A stretch of DNA of 59,874 nt from Elusimicrobiota bacterium. GTDB taxonomy: Bacteria; Elusimicrobiota; Elusimicrobia; Elusimicrobiales; UBA9959. The first letter of the stretch is position 1; the number at the start of each line of letters is the position of its first letter. Of this stretch, positions 18,195-33,899 are shown piece after piece. The notes below the pieces were generated by a model. It made no database searches, had not been told where the DNA came from, and was given only the letters and a program-made list of their open reading frames with translations. The position numbers and the translations under genes were made by a program. The DNA lies in the NCBI GenBank assembly GCA_030651035.1, contig JAUSCK010000076.1, forward strand, positions 1 to 59,874. Direction: 5' to 3'.

Positions 18195-19637
18195 ATGAGG
18201 CGTCCCGAAGTACTCCTTTTCAAGAGCCGCAGCCTGGCCTCCAAGGTGACGGGAAGCACCCCGCCGCTGGGGCTGCTTTATATAGCCGCCGCCCTGCGCG
18301 AACGGCTGAACGCCGGCGTCCGCGTGATAGACGCCAACCTCGAAGCCGATCCGCTGAAAGCCCTGAGGGACGCCGTACGCTCGGCCAGGCCCGACGTGGT
18401 GGGCATAAGCGCGCTGACCGCCGAGGCTTTCCTCGCCCACGCCGCCGCGGCCGCCGTAAAAGCCGAAAGCCCCGGCACGCCGGTGGTGATGGGCGGCCCG
18501 CACCCGTCTTCCGACCCCGACCTCGCGCTGAAAGACCCCAACATCGACGCGGCCGTCATAGGCGAGGGAGAGGACACTTTCACCGAGCTGGCCCGGCTTA
18601 TAGCTGAGGAGGGCCCCGGCTGGAAAAAGCCGGAGCTCCTGCGCGCCGTGGACGGCCTGGCCTACGCGGCCGAGGGTAAAACCTGGGCCTCAAAACCCCG
18701 CGCGCCCATAGAGGACCTGGACGCCCTGCCTTTCCCGGCGTGGGACCTCATAGATTACAAGCGCTACTGGACGCGCGGCAGCATGGCCAGCGCGGGCATC
18801 CGGCCCTACCTCACGATGTTCACCTCGCGCGGCTGCCCCTACCGCTGCGTCTACTGCCACCAGCTCTTCGGCAAGACCTTCCGCGCCCGCTCCCCCGAAA
18901 GCGTGGCCGAAGAAACGGCGAGGCTGATGAAGATGGGCGCCGGCGACATAGAGATACTCGACGACATAGCCAATTTCAAGCAGGACCGCTTCGACCGGAT
19001 CCTGGAGCTGCTGCTGGAGCGCGGCCTGCACCCGGCCCTGAGCTTTCCCAACGCCATCCGCGCCGACCTCATGCAGGAGCATTCCATCGACCTCCTGAAG
19101 CGGGTGGGCGTCGGCGAGGTCTCGGTGGCGGTGGAGACCGCGTCCGGGCGCCTCCAGGCGCTGCTGGGGAAGAACCTCTCGCTGGAAAAAGTGACCCGCA
19201 CCATAAACCTGCTGGCCGACAGGCGCATCTTCACCCGCGGCTTCTTCATGCTGGGTTTCCCCACCGAGACGGAGGAGGAACTGCGCTCCACCATCAGCTT
19301 CGCGCACTCCTCGCGCCTGCACCTGGCCCTTTTCTTCACCCCGAACCCCTTCCGCAATACCGGGCTTTACGACATGTTCGCCAAAGCCGGCAAGCTCCCC
19401 AAAGACGCCGGCACGATAGACTACGAGTATTACGGCTCGCCGTTCAACGCCAGCGAAGTCCCGGACGCCAGGTACCGCCTGCTTTACCGCTGGGCCTATT
19501 ACGGCTTTTATTTAAACCCGCTGCGCGCCCTGCGCATAGCGCGCGACAGGCCCTCTGTGGCGGATATCCCCGTGCGGGCCTGGAAACTGCTGCGCAACGT
19601 CGTCTCCTTCCGCCGCCTGAAGGAGACCGCCGCATGA
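18195..19637 (+). CDS. B12-binding radical SAM protein 1
   Basis: N-terminal cobalamin-binding domain (PPLGLLYIAA...VMGGPHP...GEGE) and SRGCPYRCVYC (CxxxCxxC). Confidence 0.93.
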   Translation: MRRPEVLLFKSRSLASKVTGSTPPLGLLYIAAALRERLNAGVRVIDANLEADPLKALRDAVRSARPDVVGISALTAEAFLAHAAAAAVKAESPGTPVVMGGPHPSSDPDLALKDPNIDAAVIGEGEDTFTELARLIAEEGPGWKKPELLRAVDGLAYAAEGKTWASKPRAPIEDLDALPFPAWDLIDYKRYWTRGSMASAGIRPYLTMFTSRGCPYRCVYCHQLFGKTFRARSPESVAEETARLMKMGAGDIEILDDIANFKQDRFDRILELLLERGLHPALSFPNAIRADLMQEHSIDLLKRVGVGEVSVAVETASGRLQALLGKNLSLEKVTRTINLLADRRIFTRGFFMLGFPTETEEELRSTISFAHSSRLHLALFFTPNPFRNTGLYDMFAKAGKLPKDAGTIDYEYYGSPFNASEVPDARYRLLYRWAYYGFYLNPLRALRIARDRPSVADIPVRAWKLLRNVVSFRRLKETAA

Positions 19638-21166
19638 AAGTCCTGATGCTCACGCCGCAGCCCCTTTATAGGCGCTGGCCCACCACGCCCGACACCACCA
19701 AGATGGTGACCAATGCCGCCCCGGTCACCATGCCGCAGCTGGCTGCGGCGCTGAAGGGTCACGAGGTGCGCATCCTCGACGGGAACGTTTACGACATACC
19801 GCTTAAAGAGTACGCGGCCCTTATACGCTGGGCCGACGTAGTGGGGATGAACGTGATGTGCTCTTACGCCGCACTGAACACCGAATTAAATCTACGCTTC
19901 ATTAAGAAGCTCAGACCCGGCCTGCCCGTGGTCATGGGCGGCCACCACCCGACTTTCCAGGACGCCGAGTGGCTGGAGCGCGGGGCCGACGCCGTAGTCC
20001 GCCGCGAGGGCGAAATTACCTTCCCGGAGCTGGTGGACGCCCTGGGCGGCAAGCGCGATATCGCCGGCGTGGCCGGCGTCTCCTGGCGTGACCGGGACGG
20101 CGGTATACACCGCAACCAGGACCGCCCTTTCATAAAAGACCTGGACTCGCTGCCGCTGCCGCGCTGGGATTTGGTGGATTTTTCCGGCTACTACCTTTAT
20201 TTCCGCAAGCCGGGCCGCTCGGCCTGCGTCGAGACCGGCCGCGGCTGCGAACAGCACTGCGCCTTCTGTCAGGTGGGGCCCATGTGGAACAATACCCACC
20301 GCTTCAAATCCCCCGAGCGGGTGCTAGAGGAGATGCGCCTGCTGAAGAAGCACGACGTGACCCAGGTCTTCATCGTCGACGACAACTACGGCTCCACCCT
20401 GGACACAGCGCGACAGGCCAGGGTTTACGAGGGGATGCGCAGGGAAAACTTCAACTTCGACTGGGGCGGCTTTTTCCGGCACGACTACATTCACGCCAAT
20501 CACGGCCTGCTGAAGGAGGCCGCCGCCGCCGGCCTGAAATTCGCCTGCGTCGGCTTCGAGAGCGTCGAGACAGCGGACATGAAGCAGTTCAACAAGGGCA
20601 ATGCCGCTTTCAACGGCGCGCCTTCCTACGAGGAGGAATACCGCTTCCTGAAGAGCGCCGGAATAGCGGTGTTCGGCTTCATGGTGATAGGCTACCCCGG
20701 GCAGAGCCAGGCCGCGGCCATGCAGACCATAGAGAACGCCCACCGTTTCTGCGACTACCCCGTAGTCACCGTGTATAAACCCCTGCCGGGCACCGCCGGC
20801 TACCGCAAAACGAAGCAGGACGGGCTGCTGGCCAAGGAAATGTTCTACCACGACTCCTTCACCGTGGCGGTGCGCGGCACCAGGCCCATACTGGCCGCCT
20901 ATAATAAATTTTTCGTGCGCTACCTCGCCAACCCGGTAAGGCTGCTGCGCAACCTCCTCGACCCGAAGCTGCGAGCGGTGGAGACGTCCATAATCACCTG
21001 GTTCGCACTGGGCCTGGCCCGGGCCAACCGGCAGAACCTGGCCGACTTCTTCTGGTTCCTCTTCAAGGGCCGCAAGAGCGGTGAAGAAGAAGTTATAGAG
21101 CATTTGCGGAAAAAATATCTCTCCGAGGAAAATATCGGGCGCCTGGCGCGCAAGGCAAATTTATGA
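19634..21166 (+). CDS. B12-binding radical SAM protein 2
   Basis: True start ATG 19634 overlaps the previous stop (ATGA). MGGHHPT, REGE and GRGCEQHCAFC motifs. The 18740 start in the ORF track is a GC-rich extension. Confidence 0.92.
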   Translation: MKVLMLTPQPLYRRWPTTPDTTKMVTNAAPVTMPQLAAALKGHEVRILDGNVYDIPLKEYAALIRWADVVGMNVMCSYAALNTELNLRFIKKLRPGLPVVMGGHHPTFQDAEWLERGADAVVRREGEITFPELVDALGGKRDIAGVAGVSWRDRDGGIHRNQDRPFIKDLDSLPLPRWDLVDFSGYYLYFRKPGRSACVETGRGCEQHCAFCQVGPMWNNTHRFKSPERVLEEMRLLKKHDVTQVFIVDDNYGSTLDTARQARVYEGMRRENFNFDWGGFFRHDYIHANHGLLKEAAAAGLKFACVGFESVETADMKQFNKGNAAFNGAPSYEEEYRFLKSAGIAVFGFMVIGYPGQSQAAAMQTIENAHRFCDYPVVTVYKPLPGTAGYRKTKQDGLLAKEMFYHDSFTVAVRGTRPILAAYNKFFVRYLANPVRLLRNLLDPKLRAVETSIITWFALGLARANRQNLADFFWFLFKGRKSGEEEVIEHLRKKYLSEENIGRLARKANL

Positions 21167-22701
21167 ACCTGCTTCTGACCACCCCGCTGCGTCTCGTACC
21201 CCGCTTCATGTCGGCCAACGATTTCCCCATGGTCTGGGGCCCTCACCCGCCAATCACCCTCGTGCAGCTGGCCGCGATGGCCGGGCCTTCCTGGAAAGTC
21301 CGCGTACTCGACCCCATCGCCTCGCCTGTAAGCCTCGCCGATTTCGGGCGGTGGATCGCGGAGGCCGATGCCCTGGGCGTCACCTGCTCCGCCTCGCAGC
21401 TGGCTCTGAACGCGGAAATAACCATAAAGCTGGCCCGCCGGCTCAGGCCCGACCTCCCCATTATCATGGGCGGCCACCACCCATCTTTTTATCCTGAGGA
21501 GTGGCTGTCGCGCGGCGCTTCCGTCATAGTCCGCGGCGAAGGGGAGCAGACCATCGCCGAGCTGCTGGAAAGGATCGAAAAGAAGCGGGGGTATCACGGT
21601 GTCGACGGAATATCCTTCCTCGAAGGCGGCAAGGTGGTGCGGACTCCGGACAGGAAGCCGGTGCATGACCTCGACGCCCTGCCTTTCCCCCGCTGGGACC
21701 TGATGGATTTGCGCGGCTACCGGCAGTTCACGCGCCGCGGCGGCCTCACCGTTTCGATGGAAACCTCGCGCGGCTGCACCAACAGCTGCTCTTTCTGCCT
21801 GGCCTCGCGCATGTGGGACGGCAAGCAGCGCTACCGTTCCATCCCGAACGTCATAGAGGACCTGAAACGGCTGCAGGCCATGGGCGCTGACCAGCTGCTT
21901 TTCGTAGGCGACGGCTTCGGCAACCCGACGGACTACCACTCGGAGCTCATGCGCGAGATGATAAAAGCCGGCATAGACATGCACTGGATGTCCTTCATGC
22001 GCGTGGACTCCATATTAAATGATCCCGGCCTGCCGGAGCTCATGGCCCGCTCGGGCTGCAAATCGGTGTTCGTCGGGTTCGAATCCCCGCGGCAGGAGCT
22101 GCTTAAGAGCTGGAAGAAAGGCCCCTCCGGAGCCGCCGACGTCTCGAAGTACCCAGAAGTGTTCCGGCTTCTGGACCAGGCCGGGATCCTGGTCTTCGGT
22201 TTCCTGCTGGTGGGCCATCCCGACGAGCGGCCGGAGGACATCCCGGAGACTATGCGGCTTAACCGGCAGTGGTGCGATATCCCGCTGGTAAACGCGCTGC
22301 AGCCCATGAAAGGTACCCCTGATTACGAGGACTACGAACGGCGGGGAATACTGGCCAAGAACATGTTCTATCACGACGTGCGCATCCCGAGCCTGAAAGG
22401 CGTAGAGAAGCACGTCCCGATAGCCATGCGTATTTTCCTGCTCCAGATACTCTTCGAGTTTCCGTTCCAGCTCTTTTCTGCGAAGGAAACCAAGCGCCGG
22501 TTCATCCGGCATATGTACAGCTTCCTCGCCAGGGAGTTCCTGGCCGCTTCTCTGGACGGCATACTGGACTACCTGATGCTGCTGAACTTCAAGGGACTAA
22601 GCCCGGCCGAGCTGCAGGACACTATTGTCCGGAAGCATACTACCGGGAAGAGGCTGGACGCCCTGGCGCGGCGCGCCGGCTGGAAGCCGGACCGTCAATA
22701 A
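21163..22701 (+). CDS. B12-binding radical SAM protein 3
   Basis: ATGA overlap with the previous gene; MGGHHPS, RGEGE and SRGCTNSCSFC motifs. Confidence 0.92.
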   Translation: MNLLLTTPLRLVPRFMSANDFPMVWGPHPPITLVQLAAMAGPSWKVRVLDPIASPVSLADFGRWIAEADALGVTCSASQLALNAEITIKLARRLRPDLPIIMGGHHPSFYPEEWLSRGASVIVRGEGEQTIAELLERIEKKRGYHGVDGISFLEGGKVVRTPDRKPVHDLDALPFPRWDLMDLRGYRQFTRRGGLTVSMETSRGCTNSCSFCLASRMWDGKQRYRSIPNVIEDLKRLQAMGADQLLFVGDGFGNPTDYHSELMREMIKAGIDMHWMSFMRVDSILNDPGLPELMARSGCKSVFVGFESPRQELLKSWKKGPSGAADVSKYPEVFRLLDQAGILVFGFLLVGHPDERPEDIPETMRLNRQWCDIPLVNALQPMKGTPDYEDYERRGILAKNMFYHDVRIPSLKGVEKHVPIAMRIFLLQILFEFPFQLFSAKETKRRFIRHMYSFLAREFLAASLDGILDYLMLLNFKGLSPAELQDTIVRKHTTGKRLDALARRAGWKPDRQ

Positions 22702-24182
22702 AGCTCGTTCCCCCGCCGTCCTACAGGGTCGCAGCCGAAAAGGGCCTCGAGCCTGTCCGGCATCTTTTCTGAAAGGATAGCAAGCACCGCCATCGCCAGC
22801 TTTATCTTCTCCTCGAATAACCTGCAGCTCCTGGCGTGCGGCCTGGAAATATCCCCGTTGAAATAATGGTTTATATTGAGGCAGGAGCCGGTGGTCCCGC
22901 AGACGCTGAAGATGCGGCAGCTGGCGCATTCCCTGAATCTTTTTTCTGTTTTCTTCAGCAGGGAGAGATATTTTTCCCTGTTCACCCCGGAGCGCACGTT
23001 CCCAAGAGAAAAGGCTTTTATCCCTATAAAGGAAGTGCAGGGGAATATTTCCCCATCGGACGAAACGGCGATCTGCCCCTGTGCCGCGGGGCATCCGCCT
23101 ATAACCTGGTTGTTGTAATACAGCCTCTGCATCAGCTTAAAGAATCTGTTGAAGAATGTTTTCCCGTAATCGAGGGCGCCGCTGACGGCCTCTTCCGAGT
23201 ATTTTCCGGCCAGCAGCTCATATTCCCTGAACATCCTGCGAAAATCCTGTTCCTTCTGAAAAAAAACAGACTCCCTTTCCGGGGTTATCCTGTGACACGC
23301 ATCTTCTGTTTCAAATATTTCCACGCGCTCGAAGCCCATGCTTTTCAGATTATTATAAAGCGCGACCATGTCCGTGTAATACGGCGTGACGGTCGTTCTG
23401 CCTACAAGCCTCCGCCTCGTTGCCGGGCGCATTTTCCCCAGATTTTCAGCTATAGCGGCGAAGCTGCCTTTACCGTCGTGAAAAGGCCTGTTCCGATCGT
23501 GAATCCTCCCGGGGCCGTCCACGCTTACCGCTATCTGCACACCGAAGCCAAGAAGCTTCTCAGCCAGCTCCGGGGTCAGAAGTGTCCCGTTCGTGGCGAG
23601 TAAAAAATGGAACCTTATTTTTTTCTTCTTTTCCAGCGCCTTGCAGTATTCCACCGTGCCGAGAAGGGCAGGAAGGTTTTTAAGGGGTTCTCCGCCGTAG
23701 AAATCCACCACCAGCTGTTTTTCCCCCTGGCTCATTTCAACCAGCAGGTCTACGGCCCGCGCAGCCGTTTCCACGGACATCGGCGGGAGACAGTCGGCTT
23801 CAGCTCCGGGGGCGGTCTTTTTTTTCTCAAAACCTTCGTTTGAATATTTACCGGTATCGTTCCAGCAGTAAATGCAGCGAAGGTTGCAGTCGGAGGTTAT
23901 ATTCAGCGTCAGGTCGGTCAGCCTGGCCGAGGCTTCCGGGACTTCCGGTTTTGTGGTACGGAGCGGGAACAGCGCGGAAATCTCCGCAGGGATGGAAAGC
24001 CTCCGGGCGAGCTTTTCCGCCGCCGCCGCTGAAACTTTCCCGTTCCGTTTTTTTATCTCGTAATTCCACTTTTTAAGGGAATTAAAAACCCCGGTGGGCA
24101 GTTCGTAGAAATCTCCGGTTCCTGTCGAGACGCCTATGCTACGCCCTAATTTTTTAAAAAGATAAGCCGGCTCTTGTTTCAT
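22695..24182 (-). CDS. Radical SAM/SPASM peptide maturase (SCIFF/CteB-like architecture)
   Basis: LTLNITSDCNLRCIYC, DFYGGEPL, TNGTLL, SVDG. Seven-Cys SPASM motif C-x12-G-x4-C...C-x2-C-x5-C-x5-C-x18-C. N-terminal RRE-like segment. RBS GAGGAG at 24192-24187. Confidence 0.92.
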   Translation of the reverse strand: MKQEPAYLFKKLGRSIGVSTGTGDFYELPTGVFNSLKKWNYEIKKRNGKVSAAAAEKLARRLSIPAEISALFPLRTTKPEVPEASARLTDLTLNITSDCNLRCIYCWNDTGKYSNEGFEKKKTAPGAEADCLPPMSVETAARAVDLLVEMSQGEKQLVVDFYGGEPLKNLPALLGTVEYCKALEKKKKIRFHFLLATNGTLLTPELAEKLLGFGVQIAVSVDGPGRIHDRNRPFHDGKGSFAAIAENLGKMRPATRRRLVGRTTVTPYYTDMVALYNNLKSMGFERVEIFETEDACHRITPERESVFFQKEQDFRRMFREYELLAGKYSEEAVSGALDYGKTFFNRFFKLMQRLYYNNQVIGGCPAAQGQIAVSSDGEIFPCTSFIGIKAFSLGNVRSGVNREKYLSLLKKTEKRFRECASCRIFSVCGTTGSCLNINHYFNGDISRPHARSCRLFEEKIKLAMAVLAILSEKMPDRLEALFGCDPVGRRGNELY

Positions 24183-24199
24183 AAGTCTCCTCGCATAAA

Positions 24200-24229
24200 G
24201 CGAAAGTCCCCGCGTTGCGGGGACTTCGC
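24200..24229 (-). terminator. Stem-loop between the putative precursor peptide and the SPASM gene
   Basis: AAGTCCCCGC-GTT-GCGGGGACTT (10-bp perfect stem, extendable to 13 bp with one bulge). On the minus strand it is followed only by TTTAT, so termination is probably leaky. Confidence 0.6.
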
Positions 24230-24250
24230 CGATTCAATATTTAATCGGTT

Positions 24251-24361
24251 TTACCAAAGAACCCTGCCGGAACGGCAGTACCGCGATAGTTTCTTCTCTG
24301 TTTTCCCGGTTTTGTTTAGTTTTTTAACTGTCTTCACTATCGGCTTTGTGATTGTGGGCAT
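24251..24361 (-). CDS. Putative RiPP precursor peptide, 36 aa: MPTITKPIVKTVKKLNKTGKTEKKLSRYCRSGRVLW
   Basis: Translated by hand (below the ORF-track cutoff). ATG 24361, TAA 24253-24251, GGAGG at 24370-24366, near-consensus promoter upstream. Lies 68 nt upstream of the SPASM maturase on the same strand. Confidence 0.8.
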   Translation of the reverse strand: MPTITKPIVKTVKKLNKTGKTEKKLSRYCRSGRVLW

Positions 24362-24391
24362 TTTGCCTCCATATAGCGTACTGTTAGTAAT

Positions 24392-24420
24392 AGTATAAGA
24401 CATAATCCGGCGGATGTCAA
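24392..24420 (-). promoter_or_regulatory. Near-consensus sigma70 promoter for the precursor peptide-SPASM transcript
   Basis: Minus strand reads TTGACA (24420-24415), 17 nt, TATACT (24397-24392). Confidence 0.75.
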
Positions 24421-24538
24421 TACGTAGTTTTCTCTGGCCTTTATTTTCAATAATATCGGGCGTTTACCCTAATCGGATAAGCCGCCGCCTCCCGATAAAA
24501 GCGGTTTAACCAAGCCTCAAACCCGAAAGAGCACAAAT

Positions 24539-24558
24539 TGATATAATCATACATATCA
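24539..24558 (+). promoter_or_regulatory. Extended -10 promoter for the downstream radical SAM operon, overlapped by a short inverted repeat
   Basis: TG-A-TATAAT at 24539-24547; TGATAT-N8-ATATCA at 24539-24558. Confidence 0.5.
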
Positions 24559-24616: not shown

Positions 24617-26077
24617 ATGAAAATATTATTTTTAGAACCTCTCCATATATTCTGGGAGTTTTTCAGGGGCCTGACGCCCTCGCATTCCCTCATCTACCTC
24701 GCCGCGGTAGCGCGCCGGGAATTCGAGGTAAAAGTCTTCGACGCATGCATGGAAAAGGAAAACCCCTGGGACAAAACGGCCGAATACCTGGAAAAAGAGC
24801 GCCCCGAGATCGTCGCCATAACGGGCTCGATAACGGGATTCTGGCCCGATACGCTGAACTGCGCGAAGCTGGTCCGCGAAATACTGCCTAAAGCCCGGAT
24901 TATAACCGGCGGCTACACAGCTTCGGTATTCTGGGCGGACGCCCTGAGGGACGGGGCCGCTGACTACGTGGTCCTGGGCGAAGGTGAACTTACGCTGATG
25001 GAGCTTTTGAGGGCGCTGAAAGAGAATAAAACGGATTTTTCCGGCATACTCGGCCTGGCTTACCTTAAGGACGGCGCGCCGGTGAAAAACGCGCCGAGGC
25101 CGTTAATGCAGAACCTCGACGAACTGCCCCCGCCCGCTTACGACCTGTTTCCCATGGAGCATTACGGGCTGGCGCCGTTCGGCGGCAAAGCGGGTTTTAC
25201 CGTAACCTTTGCGAGGGGTTGTCAGCACACCTGCGTGTTCTGCTCCGAAACTGTTTTATGGCGGCACACCTGGCGCGGACATACCCCGCAATACATGGTG
25301 GACACTCTTGAAGTTTTAAATAAAAAATACGGCAAAAGGATATTTTACGTAGGTGACAACGATTTTCTGCACGACGAGGAGCGGACCAAAGCCTTCATCG
25401 CGCTGATGCGTGAAAGACGGCTCGACGTGAAAATGTGGATACAGACCACCTGCGCCAACCTCATTAAAAACGAAAAGCATCTCAAGAATCTCAGGGAAAT
25501 CGGCGTTTACCAGGTAATGTTGGGGATCGAGACCAACAACCCCGAGGGGCTCAAGCGCCTCAACAAGCCTCAGACGCTGGAAACCGTAAACAAGGCGGTC
25601 GCCATCGCGAACACCCACGATTTCATCGTGATGGGGATGCTCATGTGGGGCGCCCCTTGGGACACAAAAGCCGGCCTGCATGACACGTTCAAATTCCTCT
25701 CTGAAAATTGCGACATAATCGGGCCCGATTTCACGACCCCGTGGCCCGGAACGCCTTATTACGCGGAATGCGAAAAGGCGGGCGCGATCGAGGTCCGCGA
25801 CCTTTCCAAATACAATATGATGAACTGCATTACCCGCACCGCCGAGCTTTCGGCTGCGGAATCCGACGCCTATTACAAGAGCGTGGTCGGCAAAGCGCTG
25901 ATCTTCAACAAGAAATCCCTGTATAATTTCTTCTTCTCAAGCAAACTCCTTTACCGCACCTACTTCATGATGTTCGTAAAGATGGGCTGGAGTTTTGTAA
26001 CAGGGAAGCCCTGGCGCCAGAAAAATTACCAGAGTTTCGAGGATTTTATCAGCAAGAGGCGCGGGGTCGCGCGTTAA
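24617..26077 (+). CDS. B12-binding radical SAM protein 4
   Basis: HSLIYLAA, IITGGYTA, GEGE and ARGCQHTCVFC motifs; GGAG RBS. Confidence 0.92.
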   Translation: MKILFLEPLHIFWEFFRGLTPSHSLIYLAAVARREFEVKVFDACMEKENPWDKTAEYLEKERPEIVAITGSITGFWPDTLNCAKLVREILPKARIITGGYTASVFWADALRDGAADYVVLGEGELTLMELLRALKENKTDFSGILGLAYLKDGAPVKNAPRPLMQNLDELPPPAYDLFPMEHYGLAPFGGKAGFTVTFARGCQHTCVFCSETVLWRHTWRGHTPQYMVDTLEVLNKKYGKRIFYVGDNDFLHDEERTKAFIALMRERRLDVKMWIQTTCANLIKNEKHLKNLREIGVYQVMLGIETNNPEGLKRLNKPQTLETVNKAVAIANTHDFIVMGMLMWGAPWDTKAGLHDTFKFLSENCDIIGPDFTTPWPGTPYYAECEKAGAIEVRDLSKYNMMNCITRTAELSAAESDAYYKSVVGKALIFNKKSLYNFFFSSKLLYRTYFMMFVKMGWSFVTGKPWRQKNYQSFEDFISKRRGVAR

Positions 26078-26105: not shown

Positions 26106-26654
26106 ATGCTAAAAATTCCGGACCTGATGAACAAGATCTTCACCCGCAGAAGAATTCTCACGGCGATATCTCTGCTGCCGCTTGCTGTTTTCCTCAAGGT
26201 CGCGCGTCACTACGGCCTCACGGAGGACGCCTGGATGAGGGCCTTCCTGGCCGGCGCGGCCCTCTCCGCCGCCCTCATGGCGGTTTTCGCGGCCATCAGG
26301 GTTCCGCTCAGGGATATCCTGCTCGCCCTGGGGCTGCTGTTCATTTCAGGCGCGGCGGCCTTCCTGGCTGACCTCAGGCCGGTGCTGGCCGTGTATGAGC
26401 GGTTCCAGGGTTCGGTCTTCCTTGTCTGGTATCTACTGGTCAGGGCCGTTTTTTATTTCGCGCCCGAACTGCTCTCCGTTTTTGCTTTCGACCCGTATGA
26501 GAGGGCCCCCGGGCTGGCCGCGGCTCTCACGGCTGGCGTCTTCGTGTGGTCTCTTTTCCACAGGGACATCCTGGTTTCCACAGTCCTGCCGATGACTCTG
26601 ATGATGATCCTGCTTTCCCTGGCCGGGCGCGCCCCCTCTTCGGAAGGCGGATAG
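26106..26654 (+). CDS. Integral membrane protein of unknown function
   Basis: About five to six hydrophobic segments; operonic between rSAM 4 and the FAD oxidoreductase. ATG 26106 preferred over GTG 26100 on SD spacing. Confidence 0.7.
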   Translation: MLKIPDLMNKIFTRRRILTAISLLPLAVFLKVARHYGLTEDAWMRAFLAGAALSAALMAVFAAIRVPLRDILLALGLLFISGAAAFLADLRPVLAVYERFQGSVFLVWYLLVRAVFYFAPELLSVFAFDPYERAPGLAAALTAGVFVWSLFHRDILVSTVLPMTLMMILLSLAGRAPSSEGG

Positions 26655-26661
26655 GCCCGGC

Positions 26662-28218
26662 ATGAAAAAAGTCCCCGGACAATATGACGCGGTGATAATA
26701 GGCGCGGGGCCCGGAGGCCTTTCCGCCGGGCTTTCGCTCGTCCGCAGGGGCTGGAAAGTCCTGATAGCCGAAAAGAACGGGGTCCCCGGAGGGAACTGCA
26801 CTTCCCGCAAGGTGGGCGGCTACACTTTCGACCTGGCGGTGCACCAGCTTTCGGGTATAGGCGGGGGCGGCATCTGCGCCGGCATCCTGCGTGAATACGG
26901 CTTGTCCGATAAGATGGAATTCAGGCAGGTAGACCCTTTCCTGGTGGTGGATATGCCGGACCGTTCCTATACGCTGCGCGGCAGCCGGAATGAGTTCCGG
27001 GACGAACTGCTTAAAGATTTCCCCGGGGAAAAGAAAGATATAGACCTCATGCTGTCCGGGCTGGATTCCCTCAAGAAGGACGCGCTGCTGGCCCAGCGCC
27101 TGCTTCACGGCGGTGACCCGGCAGTGAATGGAATGATCGCCAAAACGGTGGACTGGCTGAAGATAGCGACCTTCCCGTTCACATTCCTATGGGGTTTGGT
27201 TTCAGGAATACCGTTCAGCGCCGATGCCATGCTGCGGCGCTGGGTAAGCAACGAGAAGCTGCGCGCGGTAGTGCACGCCTCCTGGGTGTACCTTGGCCTT
27301 CCTCCTAAGCGTATTTCCGGGGTGATGATGGATGTTTTCCTGGCCATGCAGCACATGGAACATACCTACTACCCGGTGGGGAGCTCTCAAAAATTGGCGG
27401 ACATAATGGCGGAAGCCTTCCGCGCGAACGGAGGGGAGTTGCTGCTTAACTCCCCGGTCAGGAAAATCCTAACGGAAAAGGGGCGCGCCTGCGGCGTGGA
27501 GCTGGCCGGCGGCCGGACGGCCAGCGCGGGGATAGTTATTTCCAACGCCGACGCGCTCCACACCTACCGGCAGCTGCTGGAGCCGGGAGCGGCCCCGGCG
27601 GGATTTATGCCGCGGCTTGAACGGATGAAACTCTCCATGGGTCCCTTCCGCGTCTGCCTCGGCCTGGACTACGACGTAGCCGCGCACGGGATGGACCACC
27701 ACGAGTACATGATCTTCCCTGGTTATGACCATGAGGCGGCGTACGGCGCAATGGAGCGTGGTGAACCCGTCGCCATGAGCGTCTATTCGCCCACAAAAAT
27801 ATGTCCGGAGCTGGCTCCGCCCGGCCACAGTACGCTTATACTGACCACGATGCTTCCATGGCGGCCGGAAAAGGACTGGCGCGGGCGCACCGAAGCGCTG
27901 GCGGCGGAAATGATAGCGCTGGCGGAGAAAAAAAGGTTGCCGGGCCTGGCGCGGCATATAGTGGTAAAACAGATACTGACGCCTGAGGGTCTGCGGGACC
28001 TGACCAACACCGCCGAGGGCTCCATGTACGGCTGGGCTAATACCCCCGAACAGACGCTCTCATTGCGCCTCTCCATGAAGTCGCCTGTGCCGGGCCTCTA
28101 TCATACGGGACACTGGACCAGACCAGGGACCGGTGTGACCACCGCCATTCTTTCAGGCTGGATGCTCGGCAACAGGCTTAACAGCCTGGTCGGAAAGATT
28201 TTTGATAAGCTGTTTTAA
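26662..28218 (+). CDS. FAD-dependent oxidoreductase, phytoene desaturase (COG1233) family
   Basis: IIGAGPGGL, EKNGVPGG, GYTFDLAVH, YPVGSSQKLA, VISNAD, TPEGL...GSMYG and PGLYHTGHWTRPGTGVT motifs. Confidence 0.88.
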   Translation: MKKVPGQYDAVIIGAGPGGLSAGLSLVRRGWKVLIAEKNGVPGGNCTSRKVGGYTFDLAVHQLSGIGGGGICAGILREYGLSDKMEFRQVDPFLVVDMPDRSYTLRGSRNEFRDELLKDFPGEKKDIDLMLSGLDSLKKDALLAQRLLHGGDPAVNGMIAKTVDWLKIATFPFTFLWGLVSGIPFSADAMLRRWVSNEKLRAVVHASWVYLGLPPKRISGVMMDVFLAMQHMEHTYYPVGSSQKLADIMAEAFRANGGELLLNSPVRKILTEKGRACGVELAGGRTASAGIVISNADALHTYRQLLEPGAAPAGFMPRLERMKLSMGPFRVCLGLDYDVAAHGMDHHEYMIFPGYDHEAAYGAMERGEPVAMSVYSPTKICPELAPPGHSTLILTTMLPWRPEKDWRGRTEALAAEMIALAEKKRLPGLARHIVVKQILTPEGLRDLTNTAEGSMYGWANTPEQTLSLRLSMKSPVPGLYHTGHWTRPGTGVTTAILSGWMLGNRLNSLVGKIFDKLF

Positions 28219-28224
28219 CCGCAC

Positions 28225-29643
28225 ATGGCAAAGATCCTCCTGACCAATCCGCCCTGGCAATCTTTCCACACCCTGCAGGTGCTGTTCCCCAATATCCCGC
28301 CGCTGGGACTGCAGATAGTGGCCGGTGTGCTGCGCGCAGCGGGGCACGAGGCTTTGGTGGCCGACGTGCAGCATCTGCGCCCTCTGCACCCTGAATTTAT
28401 AAAGGCGATAGAGGAATTCAAGCCGGACATAATAGGCTTCTCCAATTCGGAACTGCCCAATGCGCCGATGGTGGTGAAGGTGGCGCGTGAAGTGAAGCGC
28501 CGCTACCCCGGGGTGAAGCTGCTGGCCGGCGGACAGGCGCCGAGCTTCCGCCCCGAACTTTTCCTCGGGCCGGCCGGGCCTTTCGACGCGGTGGCGCTCT
28601 ATGAGGCCGAGAGCACGGTGGTACGCATAGTTGACGCGCTGGCCTCAGGCGCCCCGCTGGACAATCTGCCGGGCTGCGCCTGGTGCGCGCCGGACGGATG
28701 CCTCAGGCGTTCCGCCGAGGAGCGCGTGATCTGCGACCTGGATACCCAGCCGATGCCTTACTGGGAGGGCTCGCTGAAGAAATCCGCTTTCTCCGACGGG
28801 CTGTTCGCCGCCCTGGAAACTTCGCGGGGCTGCCCCTTCCGCTGCGCCTTCTGCTCCGTACCAGGCTATTACGGCGCGCCGCGCTACAAGTCGGCCGCGC
28901 GCATACTCGGGGAGCTGCGCAGGCTGAAGGCGCTGGGCGTGGCTGAATTCTCGATAAACGACGATTCTTTCGCCACCCGCCCGCAGGTAGTGCTGGAGAT
29001 CTTCGAGACCATGCTGCGCGAGCGCATGAATTTGCGCTTCGGCGTGCAGATAAGGGCCGACATCATCGTCGCCCACCCGGCCCTGATCGAGTTGGGCGCG
29101 CGTGCGGGTATGTTCATGGCCGTAGTCGGGTTCGAGGGCTACACTTCCGCCGTGCAGGAGGAGTCCAACAAAGGCAACTCCGCGGCGATAAACCGGGAGG
29201 CGTCACGGATACTGCGCCGCAACGGCGTAGCCGTATACGGCACGCACGTGTTCGGCGGGCCGCAGAGCGGGCTCAAGGACAGCCTGGCGACTTTTCTTTA
29301 CGGCCGCCTCAACTCAGATATATTCCGCATGACCATTTATACACCTGTACCGGGGTCCCGGCTCTACGATGACCTGGCTGATTCCTCACAACTGACTTCA
29401 GAGAACCCGGCTGATTTTTACGAGGGGAAATATCTCATAAAGGGCGCGCATAACCCCCTGGTGATACAGTTGAGCTATTACTTCCTGCTCGCGCTGCACT
29501 ACGCCCTGCCGGACACGCTTTTCAAGCTCTTCCACCCTGACGAAGTCATACGCTGCTTCATGCGGCGGGCCTACTGCGGGGCCGTATATTTCGTGCTGGG
29601 CCAGGCCAGCTCCCTTTTCAAAAGGGGGTCTAGATCCGCTTGA
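28225..29643 (+). CDS. B12-binding radical SAM protein 5
   Basis: PPLGLQIVAG, LAGGQAPS, YEAE and SRGCPFRCAFC motifs. Confidence 0.92.
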   Translation: MAKILLTNPPWQSFHTLQVLFPNIPPLGLQIVAGVLRAAGHEALVADVQHLRPLHPEFIKAIEEFKPDIIGFSNSELPNAPMVVKVAREVKRRYPGVKLLAGGQAPSFRPELFLGPAGPFDAVALYEAESTVVRIVDALASGAPLDNLPGCAWCAPDGCLRRSAEERVICDLDTQPMPYWEGSLKKSAFSDGLFAALETSRGCPFRCAFCSVPGYYGAPRYKSAARILGELRRLKALGVAEFSINDDSFATRPQVVLEIFETMLRERMNLRFGVQIRADIIVAHPALIELGARAGMFMAVVGFEGYTSAVQEESNKGNSAAINREASRILRRNGVAVYGTHVFGGPQSGLKDSLATFLYGRLNSDIFRMTIYTPVPGSRLYDDLADSSQLTSENPADFYEGKYLIKGAHNPLVIQLSYYFLLALHYALPDTLFKLFHPDEVIRCFMRRAYCGAVYFVLGQASSLFKRGSRSA

Positions 29644-31076
29644 AGCGCCCCTCCGTACTTCTCATTAAAAGCCGCAGCGTGGTGTCCAAGATAAAGGGCA
29701 CTACGCCGCCGCTCGGCATACTTTACATAGCCGCCTGCCTGCGCCAGCGCCTGGGCGCCGAAGTGCGCGTCGTGGACGCAATGTTCGAACCGGACGCCGC
29801 CGCGACCGTGCTTGCGGCGCTGCGCGAGCAGCAGCCCGACGTGGTCGGCATAAGCGCGCTGACCGCCGAATCTTTCCTGGCACACAAGCTGGCCTCCGCC
29901 GTTAAGGGAGCCAGCCCCGGCACACCGGTGGTGATGGGCGGGCCGCACCCGACCTCCGACCCGGATAGCGCGCTCTCGGACTCTAATGTGGACGCGGTCG
30001 TGATGGGAGAAGGCGAGGAAACTTTCACCGAACTTGTACGCGTGATAGCTGAAGAAGGCCCGCGCTGGCGCGAACCGGCAACGCTGCGGGCAGTGGACGG
30101 GATCGCCTTCAGCCATGAGGGCAAGACCGAGCTTACCAGACACCGCGCCCCTATAACGGACCTTGATTCCCTTCCGTTCCCGGCCTGGGACCTGATCGAC
30201 TATAAAAAGTTCTGGAAGGCCGGCGGCATGGCCACGGTAGGCGTAAGGCCCTACCTCCCCATTTTCACCTCCCGCGGCTGCCCGTACCACTGTGTGTTCT
30301 GCCACCAGATCTTCGGCAAAGCGTTCCGCGCCCGCTCGCCGGAGAACGTGGCTGACGAAGTGGCGCAGATACACAAGCTGGGCACCAGGAACATCGAGGT
30401 ACTGGATGATATTTCCAATTTCGACCCGGATCGTTTCGACCGCATGCTGGAACTATTGCTTGAGCGGGAGCTGCGGTCGGTGCTGAGCTTCCCTAACGCC
30501 ATACGCGCGGACCTTATCCGCGAATCCTCCATCGACCTGCTGAAGCGGGTGGGCGCCGGCGAAGTGTCGGTGGCCGTGGAAACAGCCTCGGAGCGCCTCC
30601 AGAAACTGCTAAAAAAGAACCTCTCCCTCGACAAGGTCAGCCGCACTATAGACATGCTGGCGAACAGGCGTATTTTTACCCGCGGTTTCTTCATGCTTGG
30701 CCTGCCTACGGAAACCGAGGAGGAGCTGCGCGCCACTATACGGTTCGCGCACGCCTCGCGCCTGCACCTCGCGCTCTTCTTTAACCCCAACCCGTTCCAC
30801 AATACCGAGATGTACGAGATGTTCAAGAAGGCCGGCAAGCTGCGCTCCGACGTCAGCACGATAGATTTTGAATATTTCGGGGCGCCTTTCAACGCCAGCG
30901 ACATGCCCGACAGCACCTACCGCATGCTTTACAGGTGGGCTTATTACGGATTTTACCTGAACCCCGCCCGGGCTTACCGCATAGCCCGGGACGGGCCTTT
31001 CGGCTGGGACATACCCGCGCGCGTCTACGGGCTGTTCCGCAACTACACGTCTTTCCGCCGCCTCAAGGAGAGTTGA
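29640..31076 (+). CDS. B12-binding radical SAM protein 6 (paralog of 18195-19637)
   Basis: PPLGILYIAA, MGGPHP and SRGCPYHCVFC motifs. 27 of the first 38 residues are identical to protein 1. Confidence 0.93.
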   Translation: MKRPSVLLIKSRSVVSKIKGTTPPLGILYIAACLRQRLGAEVRVVDAMFEPDAAATVLAALREQQPDVVGISALTAESFLAHKLASAVKGASPGTPVVMGGPHPTSDPDSALSDSNVDAVVMGEGEETFTELVRVIAEEGPRWREPATLRAVDGIAFSHEGKTELTRHRAPITDLDSLPFPAWDLIDYKKFWKAGGMATVGVRPYLPIFTSRGCPYHCVFCHQIFGKAFRARSPENVADEVAQIHKLGTRNIEVLDDISNFDPDRFDRMLELLLERELRSVLSFPNAIRADLIRESSIDLLKRVGAGEVSVAVETASERLQKLLKKNLSLDKVSRTIDMLANRRIFTRGFFMLGLPTETEEELRATIRFAHASRLHLALFFNPNPFHNTEMYEMFKKAGKLRSDVSTIDFEYFGAPFNASDMPDSTYRMLYRWAYYGFYLNPARAYRIARDGPFGWDIPARVYGLFRNYTSFRRLKES

Positions 31077-32509
31077 TGAAAAAGATCCTTATGCTCCAGC
31101 CGCTGCGCGTTTACAGGCGCTGGCCCATGCCGGACGATTTCACCGGGCTGCTGGGAAATTCCCCCACGCTGGCCTTCGCCCAGTTAAGGGGCACGCTCAG
31201 GAACTACGAGTCTGAATTCATGGACGGGCTGGCCGGGAACTTCACTCTCGGTGAACTGACCCGCCGGGCGCAATCGGCCGACGTCGTGATGCTGAACGCG
31301 CATTCCAGCATAGGCGCGCTCAACGTCGAGTTCAACCTGCGCCATATCCTGGACACGGCGCCCGGCAAGCCCGTGATCCTGGGCGGCCACCACGCTACCG
31401 CCTACGATTTCGAATGGCTCGGCCGCGGGGCTCATTTCGTGGTGCGCAACGAGGGCGAGGAAACCATAGACGAGCTCATGGCCGCCATAGAGAAGGGCGG
31501 GCCTTACGGCGGGATCGCCGGGCTTTCCTGGCGCGACGCCGAACGGAATTTCCACCGCAACCCGGCCAGGCCGCTGATCTCCGACCTCGACAGCCTGCCC
31601 ATGCCGGACTGGAAGATCTACGACCCCTCGCTCTATTACCTGCCCCTCGCCATCCCCGGCTATTCCACCACGGCCGAAACCTCGCGCGGCTGCATGCACC
31701 GCTGCCGCTTCTGCGCGGCCAGCGAGATGTGGGGGCACACCCAGCGCTTCAAGAGCCCCGAGCGCGTGCTCGAGGAGCTGCGCGCCGTGCGCAAGCTGGG
31801 CTTCACCAAGATCTGGTTCTCCGACGACAACTTCGGGGCCGAGCCCGAGCGCTACACGAAGATCTACGAGGGGATGATCCGCGAGAACCTGGGCCTGCGC
31901 TTCGCCAGCTTCCTGCGCTGCGACACCGTGACCCGCTCCCCCGAGACGATGAAGCTGGCCTACAGGGCCGGCATGCGCGGGGCGCTGCTGGGCATAGAGA
32001 GCCCGGTGAACCGCATCCTGAAGGATTTCGCCAAGGCCAACGACCATGAGACCACCGTGAAAGCGGTGGAGGTCCTGCGCGGAGCCGGGATCTTCATAGC
32101 GGGCTTCATGATAGTGGGCTACCTGGACGAAACCCAGGCGGAGACCGAGGCGACCTTCAGGGCGGCCGACGAGCTGACCGACTATCCCATCATCTCTATT
32201 TTCGAGCCCCGCATGGGCACGGCCGATTTTACGCGCGCCACCGCGAAACTGGACCTGCCGGGCGGGGACATGTTCTACCACAACACGGTGAAGTTCATCC
32301 CGAGTAAGGCTAGCACCATCAACGATTACAGGGATTTTTACCGCGGGTACATGACGAGCCCCAAGCAGCTGAGGAAGGCGCTGTTCGGAACCCCGGTCCA
32401 GCGGGACTGGTACCGCACTTTGTACCTGAATATGGCGAAATCGGTACTGTCCGTCACTCCCACCAAGGCGGCCCATCCGTGGGAGATGGTTCGCGCCATC
32501 TACCGCTGA
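31076..32509 (+). CDS. B12-binding radical SAM protein 7 (paralog of 19634-21166)
   Basis: Start ATG 31076 overlaps the previous stop (TGATG). N-terminus MKKILMLQPLRVYRRWP resembles protein 2 (MKVLMLTPQPLYRRWP). LGGHHAT and SRGCMHRCRFC motifs. Confidence 0.92.
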   Translation: MKKILMLQPLRVYRRWPMPDDFTGLLGNSPTLAFAQLRGTLRNYESEFMDGLAGNFTLGELTRRAQSADVVMLNAHSSIGALNVEFNLRHILDTAPGKPVILGGHHATAYDFEWLGRGAHFVVRNEGEETIDELMAAIEKGGPYGGIAGLSWRDAERNFHRNPARPLISDLDSLPMPDWKIYDPSLYYLPLAIPGYSTTAETSRGCMHRCRFCAASEMWGHTQRFKSPERVLEELRAVRKLGFTKIWFSDDNFGAEPERYTKIYEGMIRENLGLRFASFLRCDTVTRSPETMKLAYRAGMRGALLGIESPVNRILKDFAKANDHETTVKAVEVLRGAGIFIAGFMIVGYLDETQAETEATFRAADELTDYPIISIFEPRMGTADFTRATAKLDLPGGDMFYHNTVKFIPSKASTINDYRDFYRGYMTSPKQLRKALFGTPVQRDWYRTLYLNMAKSVLSVTPTKAAHPWEMVRAIYR

Positions 32510-32531
32510 CAGCGCCTCCCGCATAGGAGAA

Positions 32532-33899
32532 CTACTCGCGGGCGACGCTCTCCAGGAACTTAAGGTTGCGCACTATTTCGCTTTCAGGAAAGTGCTCCGT
32601 CGAGTACCCCATGTCGTACTTCCCTTCCTGCGCCAGGAAATCCTCCAGCGTCCTTCGCCGCAGGGTAATTCCGTACTTCCCGGGGTTCTCGAAAAGCGGG
32701 GAACCCGGCTCCAGCGAAAACACGTAGACCCCTGCCCTGTCCGCGTTGAACAGGCGCTTGATCCTGCGCATGAGGGCCGCCGTTGCCAGGAGGTCCCGGC
32801 GGGTTTCAAAAGGCAGACCCGAGGTGAACCCGGTCCAGATATTTATCCCCAGGCCCGCGGCGTGCCGCAGGATAGCGATGAGCTGCTCGTTCGTATAGAA
32901 CCGGCCCCTGTTGAGGCGGCGGACCTTTTCAGAGCCGCTGCCGGCAAAGATCGTGATCCTGGACCCCGGAGCCAGCGCCCTGCTGAACCACCGGAGCAGG
33001 TTTTTCGAAGGCAGGCCGCACAGCTCCACCTTCAGGACCGGCTTAAGTTTTATTTCCAGCAGCCGTCTGAAAAGCTCCACATAATACGCGTCGCCGGGCA
33101 GCGGGCTCAGCGGGAGCTGTATCTCCGTTATCCCCCGGGCGGCCAGCTTCGCGAAGTCGGCGGCGACGGAGGCGGGAGCTTTTACCGCCGCGCGTGGCCT
33201 GCCGTTGAAGTTTTTCTGGAAGTCCCTGCCGCCGCCGCAGGCCGAGCAGTTGTCGGCGCAGCCCCTGCCGTGCACGTAAGTGAACATCCCGTCCTCAAAG
33301 CAGACGCCGTGGTAGGGCGTGGCGTTCCTGTTCAGAACGTAGTTAAGGCCGGTGAGGTCCAGCCCGGCCAGCATCGCCGGGCCGGCGAAGTAACCAATCG
33401 GGTTGAGGACAGCCCCGTTTCCCACCCGCCAGGCCAGGTTCTTAACCGCGCTGAAATCTGCGCCCCCGCGCTTCAGCCGCCGCAACAGCTCCAGCAGCGG
33501 GACCTCGGCGTCGCCGCGTATCACGAAATCTATGCCCCTGAATTTTTCCAGGATAGCCGCGGCGAAATAGGAAGCCGTGAAACCGCCGACGGCGATCTTA
33601 ACGCCGGGGTTTTCTTTTTTTATTTTTTTGGCCAGCAGCAGCGCGGTCCCGGCCTGCTGATGCCAGTGGACCGGGATGCAGACCAGCTTAACGCGCCGCT
33701 CCCTTATAAGCTCCGCCAGCCTGAATTCCCCGCGGGCCGCGCCCGGCAGGTTGATGATGGCGGACCTGACCCCTTTCTTGCCGAGGTAGCCGGCCATTGC
33801 CAGCAGGCCGGCCGGCATTATCGGGAGGCCGGTCTTTTTCCCGGCGCGGGAGCCGGAATAAACGAACAGGCAGTCGAGGTTTAGAGCTGAAGTAGACAT
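32532..33899 (-). CDS. B12-binding radical SAM protein 8
   Basis: MPAGLLAMAG, VGGFTAS, RGDAE and GRGCADNCSAC motifs. Convergent with protein 7. Confidence 0.88.
   Translation of the reverse strand: MSTSALNLDCLFVYSGSRAGKKTGLPIMPAGLLAMAGYLGKKGVRSAIINLPGAARGEFRLAELIRERRVKLVCIPVHWHQQAGTALLLAKKIKKENPGVKIAVGGFTASYFAAAILEKFRGIDFVIRGDAEVPLLELLRRLKRGGADFSAVKNLAWRVGNGAVLNPIGYFAGPAMLAGLDLTGLNYVLNRNATPYHGVCFEDGMFTYVHGRGCADNCSACGGGRDFQKNFNGRPRAAVKAPASVAADFAKLAARGITEIQLPLSPLPGDAYYVELFRRLLEIKLKPVLKVELCGLPSKNLLRWFSRALAPGSRITIFAGSGSEKVRRLNRGRFYTNEQLIAILRHAAGLGINIWTGFTSGLPFETRRDLLATAALMRRIKRLFNADRAGVYVFSLEPGSPLFENPGKYGITLRRRTLEDFLAQEGKYDMGYSTEHFPESEIVRNLKFLESVARE

Follow-up and report, generated by a model that had tools for sequence, protein, structure and literature searches.

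A block of twelve genes at positions 18195 to 33899 of a 59,874-nucleotide (nt) stretch of Elusimicrobiota DNA (GenBank assembly GCA_030651035.1, contig JAUSCK010000076.1, positions 1 to 59,874; the whole stretch is referred to here as the window) encodes nine radical S-adenosylmethionine (rSAM) enzymes, eight of which carry a cobalamin (B12)-binding domain. The block is a real, non-random and conserved gene set. It is tentatively viewed here, with a likelihood a little short of even, as two nested parts: a line of B12-binding rSAM enzymes (B12-rSAMs) arranged around a flavin adenine dinucleotide (FAD) enzyme of the CrtI/COG1233 family (F7), which would tailor a lipid, and a unit comprising a 36-residue (36-aa) peptide and a SPASM-domain enzyme (S4), of the type that makes peptides of ribosomal origin that are modified post-translationally (RiPPs). 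The gene names used below are those of Table 1.

Composition and Conservation of the Block

In Pfam profile searches, eight open reading frames (ORFs) of the block (R1, R2, R3, R5, R8, R9, R10 and R11) encode an N-terminal B12-binding domain (PF02310) followed by a Radical_SAM domain containing CxxxCxxC, the architecture of class B rSAM enzymes, and this motif is present in all nine rSAM proteins of the block. The B12 domain of R10 scores 29.7 bits by hmmscan (cut-off 32.1) and 33 bits, above the cut-off, in the genome scan. These results agree with a sequence-only reading of the window, which had counted nine CxxxCxxC proteins and eight cobalamin-binding domains among the twelve genes and had described the remaining three as a 36-aa peptide, a membrane protein (M6) and a COG1233-type FAD enzyme. 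The genes R1, R2 and R3 are coupled via 4-nt start-stop overlaps, and the gaps in the series R5-M6-F7-R8-R9-R10 are 28, 7, 6, -4 and -1 nt, a spacing that indicates two operons (R1-R2-R3 and R5-M6-F7-R8-R9-R10). The S4 and R3 genes overlap tail to tail.

Orthologs of F7, counted at 61% identity or more, are rare, occurring in 7 of 401 sampled Elusimicrobiota genomes that represent four genera of one family, and in each of these they are surrounded by B12-rSAMs of the orthogroups described below. Relatives of F7 adjoin B12-rSAM genes at every locus examined (11 of 11 in Elusimicrobiota and 5 of 5 in Omnitrophota). In genome G237, which belongs to another genus, the genes lie on one strand in the order R1 R2 R3 R5 peptide S4 M6 F7 R9 R10, with an AAA_14/DUF4143 insert between S4 and M6, and the encoded proteins are 60–82% identical to those of the window. 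Other arrangements are M6-F7-R8-R9-R10 (G003 and G280), R8-R9-R2-R10-R10'-F7 (G154) and R1-F7'-(M6)-F7-R8(-R9) (G015, SKS1.bin115, UBA11179 and Ess09-09). A groundwater contig carries an rSAM/methyltransferase fusion followed by M6-F7-R8-R9 and then an R11 ortholog (80% identity) in the same convergent position as in the window, which places R11 in the set. The contigs most closely related to the window come from groundwater metagenomes.

In four other Elusimicrobiota an R1 ortholog (76–89% identity) immediately precedes an F7 copy, orthologs of R8 (55–85%) lie directly after F7 in eight loci, and orthologs of R9 (66–76%) are found in nine loci. Orthologs of R2 occur in G237 (76%) and G154 (62%), those of R3 in G237 (81%) and Elusimicrobiaceae co266 (66%), and those of R10 (61–82%) in G003, G280, G237, G154 and co266. 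Outside the phylum, five Omnitrophota species carry an F7 homolog (41–45% identity) beside three to six B12-rSAMs, and three of these five species also encode a PMT_2/TPR protein of the GT-C glycosyltransferase type together with a family 2 glycosyltransferase (GT2). A separate observation concerns the slot before M6: in three Elusimicrobiota clusters (L011, L017 and L071) a 571-aa fusion of an rSAM and a class I SAM methyltransferase directly precedes M6; this fusion is absent from the window, where R5 occupies the slot.

The relationships among the B12-rSAMs were examined using a tree of 84 sequences from this genome and 20 related loci. Orthogroups A (R1 and R9), B (R2, R3 and R10) and D are common to Elusimicrobiota and Omnitrophota; all three are represented beside F7 in the Omnitrophota species described above, and an Omnitrophota homolog of R9 (38–40% identity) groups with orthogroup A. 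Orthogroup D has no member in the window and is represented in this genome by a copy at contig C186:14495-15961. Orthogroup C (R8) is found in Elusimicrobiota only, orthogroup E (R5) has no Omnitrophota member, and R11 is an orphan in the tree. Within the block, the only close pairs are R1/R9 (70% identity) and R2/R10 (40%), while all other pairs are 22–33% identical. This low pairwise identity suggests that the array is old and diverse, with the exception of one duplicated two-gene module.

The sequence-only reading had treated the block as one super-cluster and named a chance array of unrelated paralogs, without conserved co-localization in other genomes, as the outcome that would overturn this view. 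A chance array might be anticipated in a genome with 75 rSAM-domain and 28 B12-domain hits among approximately 3,950 ORFs, and the low identity of most pairs within the block is what such an array would look like. However, nine rSAM genes in 12 consecutive genes have a probability of approximately 7e-14 per position and 3e-10 genome-wide at the genome's own rSAM rate, start-stop overlaps link the genes, and the conservation data already contradict a random origin, as a second genus keeps the gene order and the core recurs in two phyla. The probability of a chance array is therefore negligible, and the super-cluster stands as a set kept across genera, with its core kept across two phyla.

The Peptide/SPASM Unit

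The 36-aa peptide gene lies directly upstream of S4 on the opposite strand from most of the block. Five variants of the peptide are known: that of the window, homologs directly before S4 orthologs in G004, G010 and G237, and a fifth from a protein collection. The C-terminal sequence LSRYCRSGRVLW is invariant in all five, the Lys-rich N-terminal part is variable, and the 12 codons of the core show up to 10 synonymous and no non-synonymous changes across the variants. The peptide gene is preceded by a TTGACA-N17-TATACT element, which is the best sigma-70-like match in positions 17900-34200 (11 of 12 positions) and whose TTGACA -35 box is also present in three homologous loci, and by a GGAGG ribosome-binding site (RBS) 4 nt before the ATG. 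A stem-loop rich in GC, found once in the genome, is located 20 nt before the RBS of S4; its stem sequence is identical in 4 of 4 homologous loci, with no compensatory changes, and we infer that it serves as an attenuator or processing site. The invariance of the core in the face of synonymous change, together with the retention of the -35 box, the RBS and the hairpin stem, indicates that the peptide is a real gene under strong selection.

Orthologs of S4 (79–84% identity) always directly follow the peptide gene. S4 combines a CxxxCxxC motif with the seven C-terminal Cys residues of a SPASM domain and an adjacent precursor-type gene, as in the SPASM maturases of thioether-type RiPPs, and its closest structure is that of CteB (PDB 5WGG, E 1.5e-41). 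The scores of S4 against NCBIfam models (PapB, 228 bits; nif11 maturase, 217 bits; QhpD, 191 bits; SCIFF maturase, 180 bits) are all below the respective cut-offs, and the peptide matches no NCBIfam precursor family. The peptide/SPASM pair is thus very probably a new RiPP-type unit with its own promoter. Since the core holds a single Cys, S4 would most likely form one cross-link, and the neighboring R5 may add a further modification to the peptide. Downstream of its single Cys, the peptide lacks the Asp, Glu and Thr residues that PapB, QhpD and CteB use as acceptors, so the sequence does not point to an acceptor for the cross-link. As a new precursor family with an invariant 12-residue, single-Cys core, the unit is a tractable system for finding a new cross-link.

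S4 resembles the maturases of SCIFF and other ranthipeptides (CteB, PapB) in its rSAM core, seven-Cys SPASM domain and N-terminal extension, and the precursor gene is likewise placed as in SCIFF systems, directly upstream and separated from the maturase gene by a hairpin. In contrast to SCIFF peptides, which contain six Cys residues in approximately 45 aa, the peptide has one Cys that no Asp, Glu or Thr acceptor follows, and S4 remains at 180 bits against the SCIFF maturase model TIGR03974, where 425 are needed. The pattern of conservation is also the reverse of that usual for RiPPs, in that the core is invariant and the leader is variable. Similarly, the hallmarks of proteusins and polytheonamides were not found: no NHLP or Nif11 leader was recognized by NCBIfam, and the best score in the block against TIGR03975 is 105.8 bits (cut-off 281.85).

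F7, M6 and a Candidate Lipid-Tailoring Line

The core of F7 and B12-rSAMs also recurs where the peptide is absent. Neither S4 nor the peptide is present in at least 10 F7 clusters, from two phyla, with members of orthogroups A, B, C or D, and a search for conserved small ORFs in 17 loci recovered only this peptide, although ORFs shorter than 15 aa or strongly diverged ORFs would escape this search. These findings indicate that the F7/B12-rSAM line does not need the peptide.

F7 belongs to the amine oxidase superfamily (PF01593) and has an invariant FAD-binding GxGxxG motif. It aligns only with the CrtI/CrtD/CrtISO lineage, with structural matches to PDB 4REP and 4DGK, and scores 184.6 bits against TIGR02734 (crtI_fam; cut-off 238.1). 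Given this score and the lack of an SQS_PSY gene in the cluster, F7 is not assigned to the CrtI/phytoene desaturase subfamily. In the family tree, the Elusimicrobiota clade of F7 has as its sister a group of proteins from Myxococcota, Bacteroidota and a deltaproteobacterium, with the Omnitrophota clade outside both. Members of the sister clade have no B12-rSAM neighbors and occur either alone or beside lipid-type genes. In one case these neighbors are FA_hydroxylase and two further CrtI-like genes; in another they encode 3-beta-HSD, an acyl-AMP ligase, KAS III and an rSAM. The M6 gene, which ends 7 nt upstream of F7, lies beside F7 in nearly all Elusimicrobiota loci examined. M6 consists almost entirely of hydrophobic helices and has no Pfam or NCBIfam match, even at permissive thresholds; eight homologs align with 27 invariant columns.

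It is quite possible, if somewhat less than an even bet, that the F7-centered operons tailor a long, hydrophobic membrane lipid, most likely of isoprenoid type, without the use of oxygen. A lipid substrate is suggested by the CrtI affinity of F7, the lipid-type neighbors of its sister clade, the coupling of the polytopic M6 with F7, the polyprenyl-type GT2 and PMT_2-like proteins of the related clusters, and Peptidase_U32 genes in G005. The last of these are found at L015 (G005:C216, positions 10167-15574), where an R5 ortholog, two Peptidase_U32 genes, an F7-like CrtI enzyme (33% identity) and a B12-rSAM lie together. The U32 family includes the O2-independent hydroxylases UbiU/V and TrhP, and this operon could represent a further version of this type of cluster, one that hydroxylates without oxygen. 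In the proposed line, which would comprise the R1-R2-R3 and R5-M6-F7-R8-R9-R10 operons and the convergent R11, F7 would add, remove or isomerize C=C bonds with M6 as a partner, and B12-rSAMs of at least four orthogroups (A, B, C and D) would then methylate, cyclize or desaturate unactivated carbons. As the line of the relatives continues into a GT2, GT-C/PMT_2-like proteins and a nucleotidyltransferase, the end product may be glycosylated. All of these reactions are assigned by resemblance to the comparison systems described below.

The genome contains two SQS_PSY genes (C205:6133-6957, 274 aa; C143:27739-28890, 383 aa), and both are present in all 41 sampled genomes of the order, including those of 1.2–1.7 Mb. 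Their universal occurrence suggests that a head-to-head C30/C40 isoprenoid backbone is available. No match to the squalene-hopene cyclase model PF13243 was found in this 96% complete genome, which excludes hopanoids. As an aside, with SQS_PSY universal and the cyclase absent, the order seems to make a squalene- or phytoene-type hydrocarbon.

The oxygen-independent functionalization of inert lipid carbons by B12-rSAMs is well documented for hopanoids and in archaea; to our knowledge, most bacterial cases of such functionalization have no assigned gene. The F7 core offers a compact conserved bacterial set, with one CrtI-family enzyme and three to four B12-rSAM orthogroups in Elusimicrobiota and Omnitrophota, so heterologous expression offers a direct test of the question. 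Should a methylated, cyclized or desaturated lipid prove to be the product, orphan lipid biomarkers of anoxic groundwater and sediments could find their explanation in it, and new class B chemistries would be added.

Family Assignments of the B12-rSAMs

The B12-rSAMs do not fall into characterized families. No enzyme reaches the NCBIfam cut-off for BchE, HpnP/R/J, PhpK, TsrM-type, KedN5, ApyD, QCMT, BzaD, TIGR04072 or TIGR03975; the best equivalog scores of the eight window enzymes and the '488' enzyme of contig C186 are 99–204 bits, compared with cut-offs of 251–750. BchE is the top weak match of R1, R3, R5, R9 and R10 (99–204 bits; R5 scores 204; cut-off 481). The remaining scores are 134 bits for R8 against HpnR (cut-off 650), 116–117 bits for R1 and R9 against TIGR04072 (cut-off 360), and 177 bits for R11 against TIGR04190 (cut-off 500). 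An annotation of TIGR04190 as a family of ring synthases for glycerol dialkyl glycerol tetraethers (GDGTs) was dropped after a Sulfolobus acidocaldarius control gave no match above the cut-off. The sequence-only reading had listed a hyper-C-methylated RiPP among its hypotheses; the hyper-C-methylation is an assumption, as none of the eight B12-rSAMs reaches the cut-off of any methyltransferase family. Class B rSAM chemistry also includes cyclization, desaturation and ring contraction.

Weighing the Candidate Substrates

Several findings weigh against a lipid-tailoring line that is separate from the peptide. No prenyltransferase, SQS_PSY, acyl carrier protein (ACP) or ketosynthase gene lies in or adjoins the block, and SQS_PSY, being present in every genome of the order, does not track F7. 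The AlphaFold2 model of M6, built from eight sequences, is helical with a pLDDT of 59 and a pTM of 0.34, and no fold can be assigned. With no enzyme reaching any curated family cut-off, the assignment of each individual reaction is a guess, and the best PDB match of R9 is the protein-modifying QCMT (62 bits). The GT2 and GT-C context also suits a glycan target. Finally, the peptide and S4 lie inside the operon in G237, the pair is found next to B12-rSAMs in 5 of 5 contexts, and in G010 it stands beside four B12-rSAM-like genes with no F7 nearby, so some or all of the B12-rSAMs could be peptide modifiers. These contexts lend weight to a single RiPP pathway, in which most or all of the B12-rSAMs, S4 and F7 would act on the 36-aa peptide to give a heavily C-alkylated, cross-linked product by a logic analogous to that of polytheonamide biosynthesis. 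The core of the peptide contains Arg, Val, Leu, Trp and Tyr, which are known class B targets, and ApyD and TIGR03975 are found, along with the QCMT relative of R9, among the weak matches. Such a pathway is nevertheless rather unlikely, as F7 clusters in at least 10 genomes of two phyla have no S4, no peptide and no other conserved small ORF, the B12-rSAMs fall below the cut-off for RiPP C-methyltransferases (at best 106 of 282 bits), and no leader peptidase or exporter is present. Furthermore, we know of no CrtI-family flavoenzyme that modifies peptides. The involvement of R5 is less clear-cut, in that its orthologs in G237 and G004 adjoin the peptide and its ortholog in G005 has none. Of the products proposed in the sequence-only reading, a RiPP derived from the 36-aa peptide is thus borne out as far as the peptide/SPASM unit alone is concerned, as nothing points to the full set of eight B12-rSAMs acting on it, and an unusual membrane lipid gives the best fit for the F7/B12-rSAM core that recurs without the peptide, with the substrate class resting on the genomic associations outlined above.

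Two further targets are each improbable. In the first, the B12-rSAMs would C-methylate or rearrange the sugars of a surface glycoconjugate, by analogy with the GenK/Fms7-type enzymes of aminoglycoside biosynthesis, and F7 would be a sugar or amine oxidase. In relatives, and likewise in Omnitrophota, the F7 block runs on into genes for a GT2, PMT_2-like GT-C proteins and a nucleotidyltransferase, and AprD4 is among the weak PDB and NCBIfam matches; set against this, F7 is closest to carotenoid desaturases and isomerases and not to sugar oxidases or UDP-galactopyranose mutase, the window contains no sugar-nucleotide gene, and the coupling of M6 with F7 and the lipid neighbors of the F7 sister clade favor a lipid. 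In the second, the rSAM suite would build a new tetrapyrrole- or peptide-derived cofactor, as was proposed for rSAM genes beside a nitrogenase paralog. The peptide unit of G004 lies close to such a paralog (see below), BchE is the most frequent weak match among the B12-rSAMs, the invariant core and variable leader of the peptide resemble PqqA and MftA, and the linked GT2 weakly matches MftF. However, the BchE scores are far under the cut-off of 481 bits, the block contains no tetrapyrrole gene, and this genome as well as G003, G015, G280, G154 and G237 have the F7 cluster but no NifH paralog. A cofactor or tetrapyrrole derivative, the last product suggested in the sequence-only reading, consequently has no direct support here. 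The two-part organization, with a lipid as the target of the F7 line, therefore remains the interpretation we favor.

Relationship to Known Systems

Several known systems resemble parts of the block. In archaea, isoprenoid tails are cyclized, methylated and desaturated by the B12-rSAMs GrsA/B, Gmm, Cgm, Pgm and Ted, and are also a substrate of the CrtI-family hydratase Has, the hydroxyarchaeol synthase (bioRxiv 10.1101/2025.10.20.683597; PMC13459092). Similar to the block, this GDGT toolkit combines several B12-rSAMs with a flavoenzyme of the phytoene desaturase family; it is O2-independent and targets unactivated carbons or double bonds in the tails of membrane lipids. The likeness is one of enzyme class. 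In contrast to the archaeal toolkit, the block is bacterial, a single operon gathers its genes, and neither an ether-lipid nor a tetraether-synthase gene was seen. The anammox 'ladderane' Cluster I contains amxACP, amxFabZ, FabF homologs, a phytoene-dehydrogenase-like flavoenzyme and a B12-rSAM (TIGR04072), with an unresolved product (PMC13459092). It shares with the block the pairing of such a flavoenzyme with a B12-rSAM in an anaerobe; however, no ACP, FabZ or FabF gene, which lie adjacent in Cluster I, was found within positions 11655-39029, and there are eight B12-rSAMs here compared with one. Hopanoid tailoring involves three types of B12-rSAM (HpnP, HpnR and HpnJ), a flavoenzyme of the same superfamily (HpnE) and a GT2 (HpnI), whose substrate is a lipid derived from squalene, and the organism has SQS_PSY. 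In contrast to hopanoid producers, its genome encodes no squalene-hopene cyclase, and the best scores are 134 of 650 bits for HpnR and 126 of 578 bits for HpnJ.

In the same phylum and habitat, densely arrayed rSAM genes have been described beside a group VI nitrogenase paralog; some of them encode B12 domains, and a tetrapyrrole-type cofactor was proposed (Meheust et al. 2020; bioRxiv 10.1101/765248). The word 'phytoene' is absent from the text of that study (bioRxiv 10.1101/765248), and the peptide was not searched for there. The sequence-only reading had remarked that no nitrogenase paralog is seen in the window, and this holds genome-wide: no nitrogenase paralog was found beside rSAM genes or elsewhere in the 96% complete genome, in which P-loop matches reach at most 34 bits. 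The NifH paralog is also absent from five other F7-bearing genomes (G003, G015, G280, G154 and G237). It is present in G004, G010 and G374 and adjoins rSAM genes only in G004, where an R5/peptide-S4/F7-like unit lies approximately 9 kb from the paralog and at least 10 homologs of the rSAM genes of contig C186 are found in between. The absence of the paralog here and in five F7-bearing genomes, and its proximity to the unit in G004, indicate that the window belongs to the same family of variable rSAM islands but is independent of the nitrogenase paralog. A neighboring observation is that L040 (G004:C65:20001-40000) contains at least 10 consecutive paralogs of an rSAM of approximately 300–360 aa around a NifH-like gene; these are related to C186:4938-5855 of this genome, and the island is of the type described previously (bioRxiv 10.1101/765248).

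The Extended Island and Contig C186

In relatives, the F7 block is contiguous with a GT2 (approximately 245 aa), an orthogroup-D B12-rSAM, a nucleotidyltransferase and a second gene of the amine oxidase family. The extended block also contains a membrane/beta-propeller protein of approximately 500–550 aa or PMT_2-like proteins, several rSAMs without a B12 domain, a class V aminotransferase and an M20 peptidase. The best matches of the GT2 are polyprenyl-phosphate sugar synthases, with a weak match to MftF. The counterparts of these genes in this genome are located on contigs C186, C193 and C169. Positions 1-25000 of C186 (loci L026 and L027) form a second rSAM island with 13 rSAM-domain hits. 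Two SPASM enzymes and two B12-rSAMs are encoded there, as are a GT2, a nucleotidyltransferase, a diphthamide-synthase-like ATPase and a membrane/beta-propeller protein of 550 aa. With the extended genes on other contigs and housekeeping genes on both sides of the block, the system appears to be split into at least two loci here. Because the C186 island and the F7 block are contiguous in relatives, the two could be read as one pathway that starts from the LSRYCRSGRVLW core and uses more than 20 rSAMs, the flavoenzyme and glycosyltransferases to make a single hybrid molecule, a cofactor or envelope component of a hitherto undescribed kind that would derive from the peptide and be either linked to a lipid or heavily C-alkylated, but this is doubtful.

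Genomic Setting

The coordinates of the block are listed in Table 1. The host assembly comprises 4.47 Mb in 320 contigs. The block is bordered by housekeeping genes (lpxB, an msbA-like ABC transporter gene, relA/spoT, aconitase and tatC), and, as the sequence-only reading had stated, no protease, exporter, ACP or terpene synthase gene is found inside positions 18195-33899. The G+C content of S4 (0.53), the intergenic region (0.44) and R5 (0.54) is lower than that of the neighboring genes (0.60–0.66). Evidence for insertion of the cluster between relA and aconitase was sought, and the surroundings of the aconitase gene were found to vary within the genus.

Table 1. Genes and other elements of the rSAM block, in window coordinates
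Feature	Position	Strand	Description
R1	18195..19637	+	B12-binding rSAM, orthogroup A; CxxxCxxC at residue 214; Pfam
R2	19634..21166	+	B12-binding rSAM, orthogroup B; 4-nt overlap with R1 stop
R3	21163..22701	+	B12-binding rSAM, orthogroup B; 4-nt overlap with R2 stop
S4	22695..24182	-	CteB-like rSAM/SPASM peptide maturase; Pfam Radical_SAM and SPASM
Stem-loop	24203..24227	-	GAAGTCCCCG-loop-CGGGGACTT, between peptide gene and S4
36-aa precursor-type peptide	24251..24361	-	MPTITKPIVKTVKKLNKTGKTEKKLSRYCRSGRVLW; conserved ORF before S4
Promoter-like site of peptide gene	24392..24420	-	TTGACA-N17-TATACT; sigma-70-like match
R5	24617..26077	+	B12-binding rSAM, orthogroup E
M6	26106..26654	+	Small polytopic membrane protein, 182-184 aa
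F7	26662..28218	+	CrtI/COG1233-family FAD enzyme; Pfam Amino_oxidase
R8	28225..29643	+	B12-binding rSAM, orthogroup C
R9	29640..31076	+	B12-binding rSAM, orthogroup A
R10	31076..32509	+	B12-binding rSAM, orthogroup B; 1-nt overlap with R9 stop
R11	32532..33899	-	B12-binding rSAM, convergent with R10; nearest family TIGR04190 (Ta0216-type)

Two minor observations concern the remainder of the window. The G+C content of positions 1-8000 is 0.45, compared with 0.56–0.64 elsewhere in the window, and this stretch may be foreign. In addition, the exact 29-mer TTCACCGCAGAGGCGCAGAGGTCGCAGAG occurs in intergenic DNA at positions 12728, 15797 and 18110; one copy lies 57 nt upstream of R1, and with 33 copies genome-wide the element resembles a dispersed repeat of the repetitive extragenic palindromic (REP) type.

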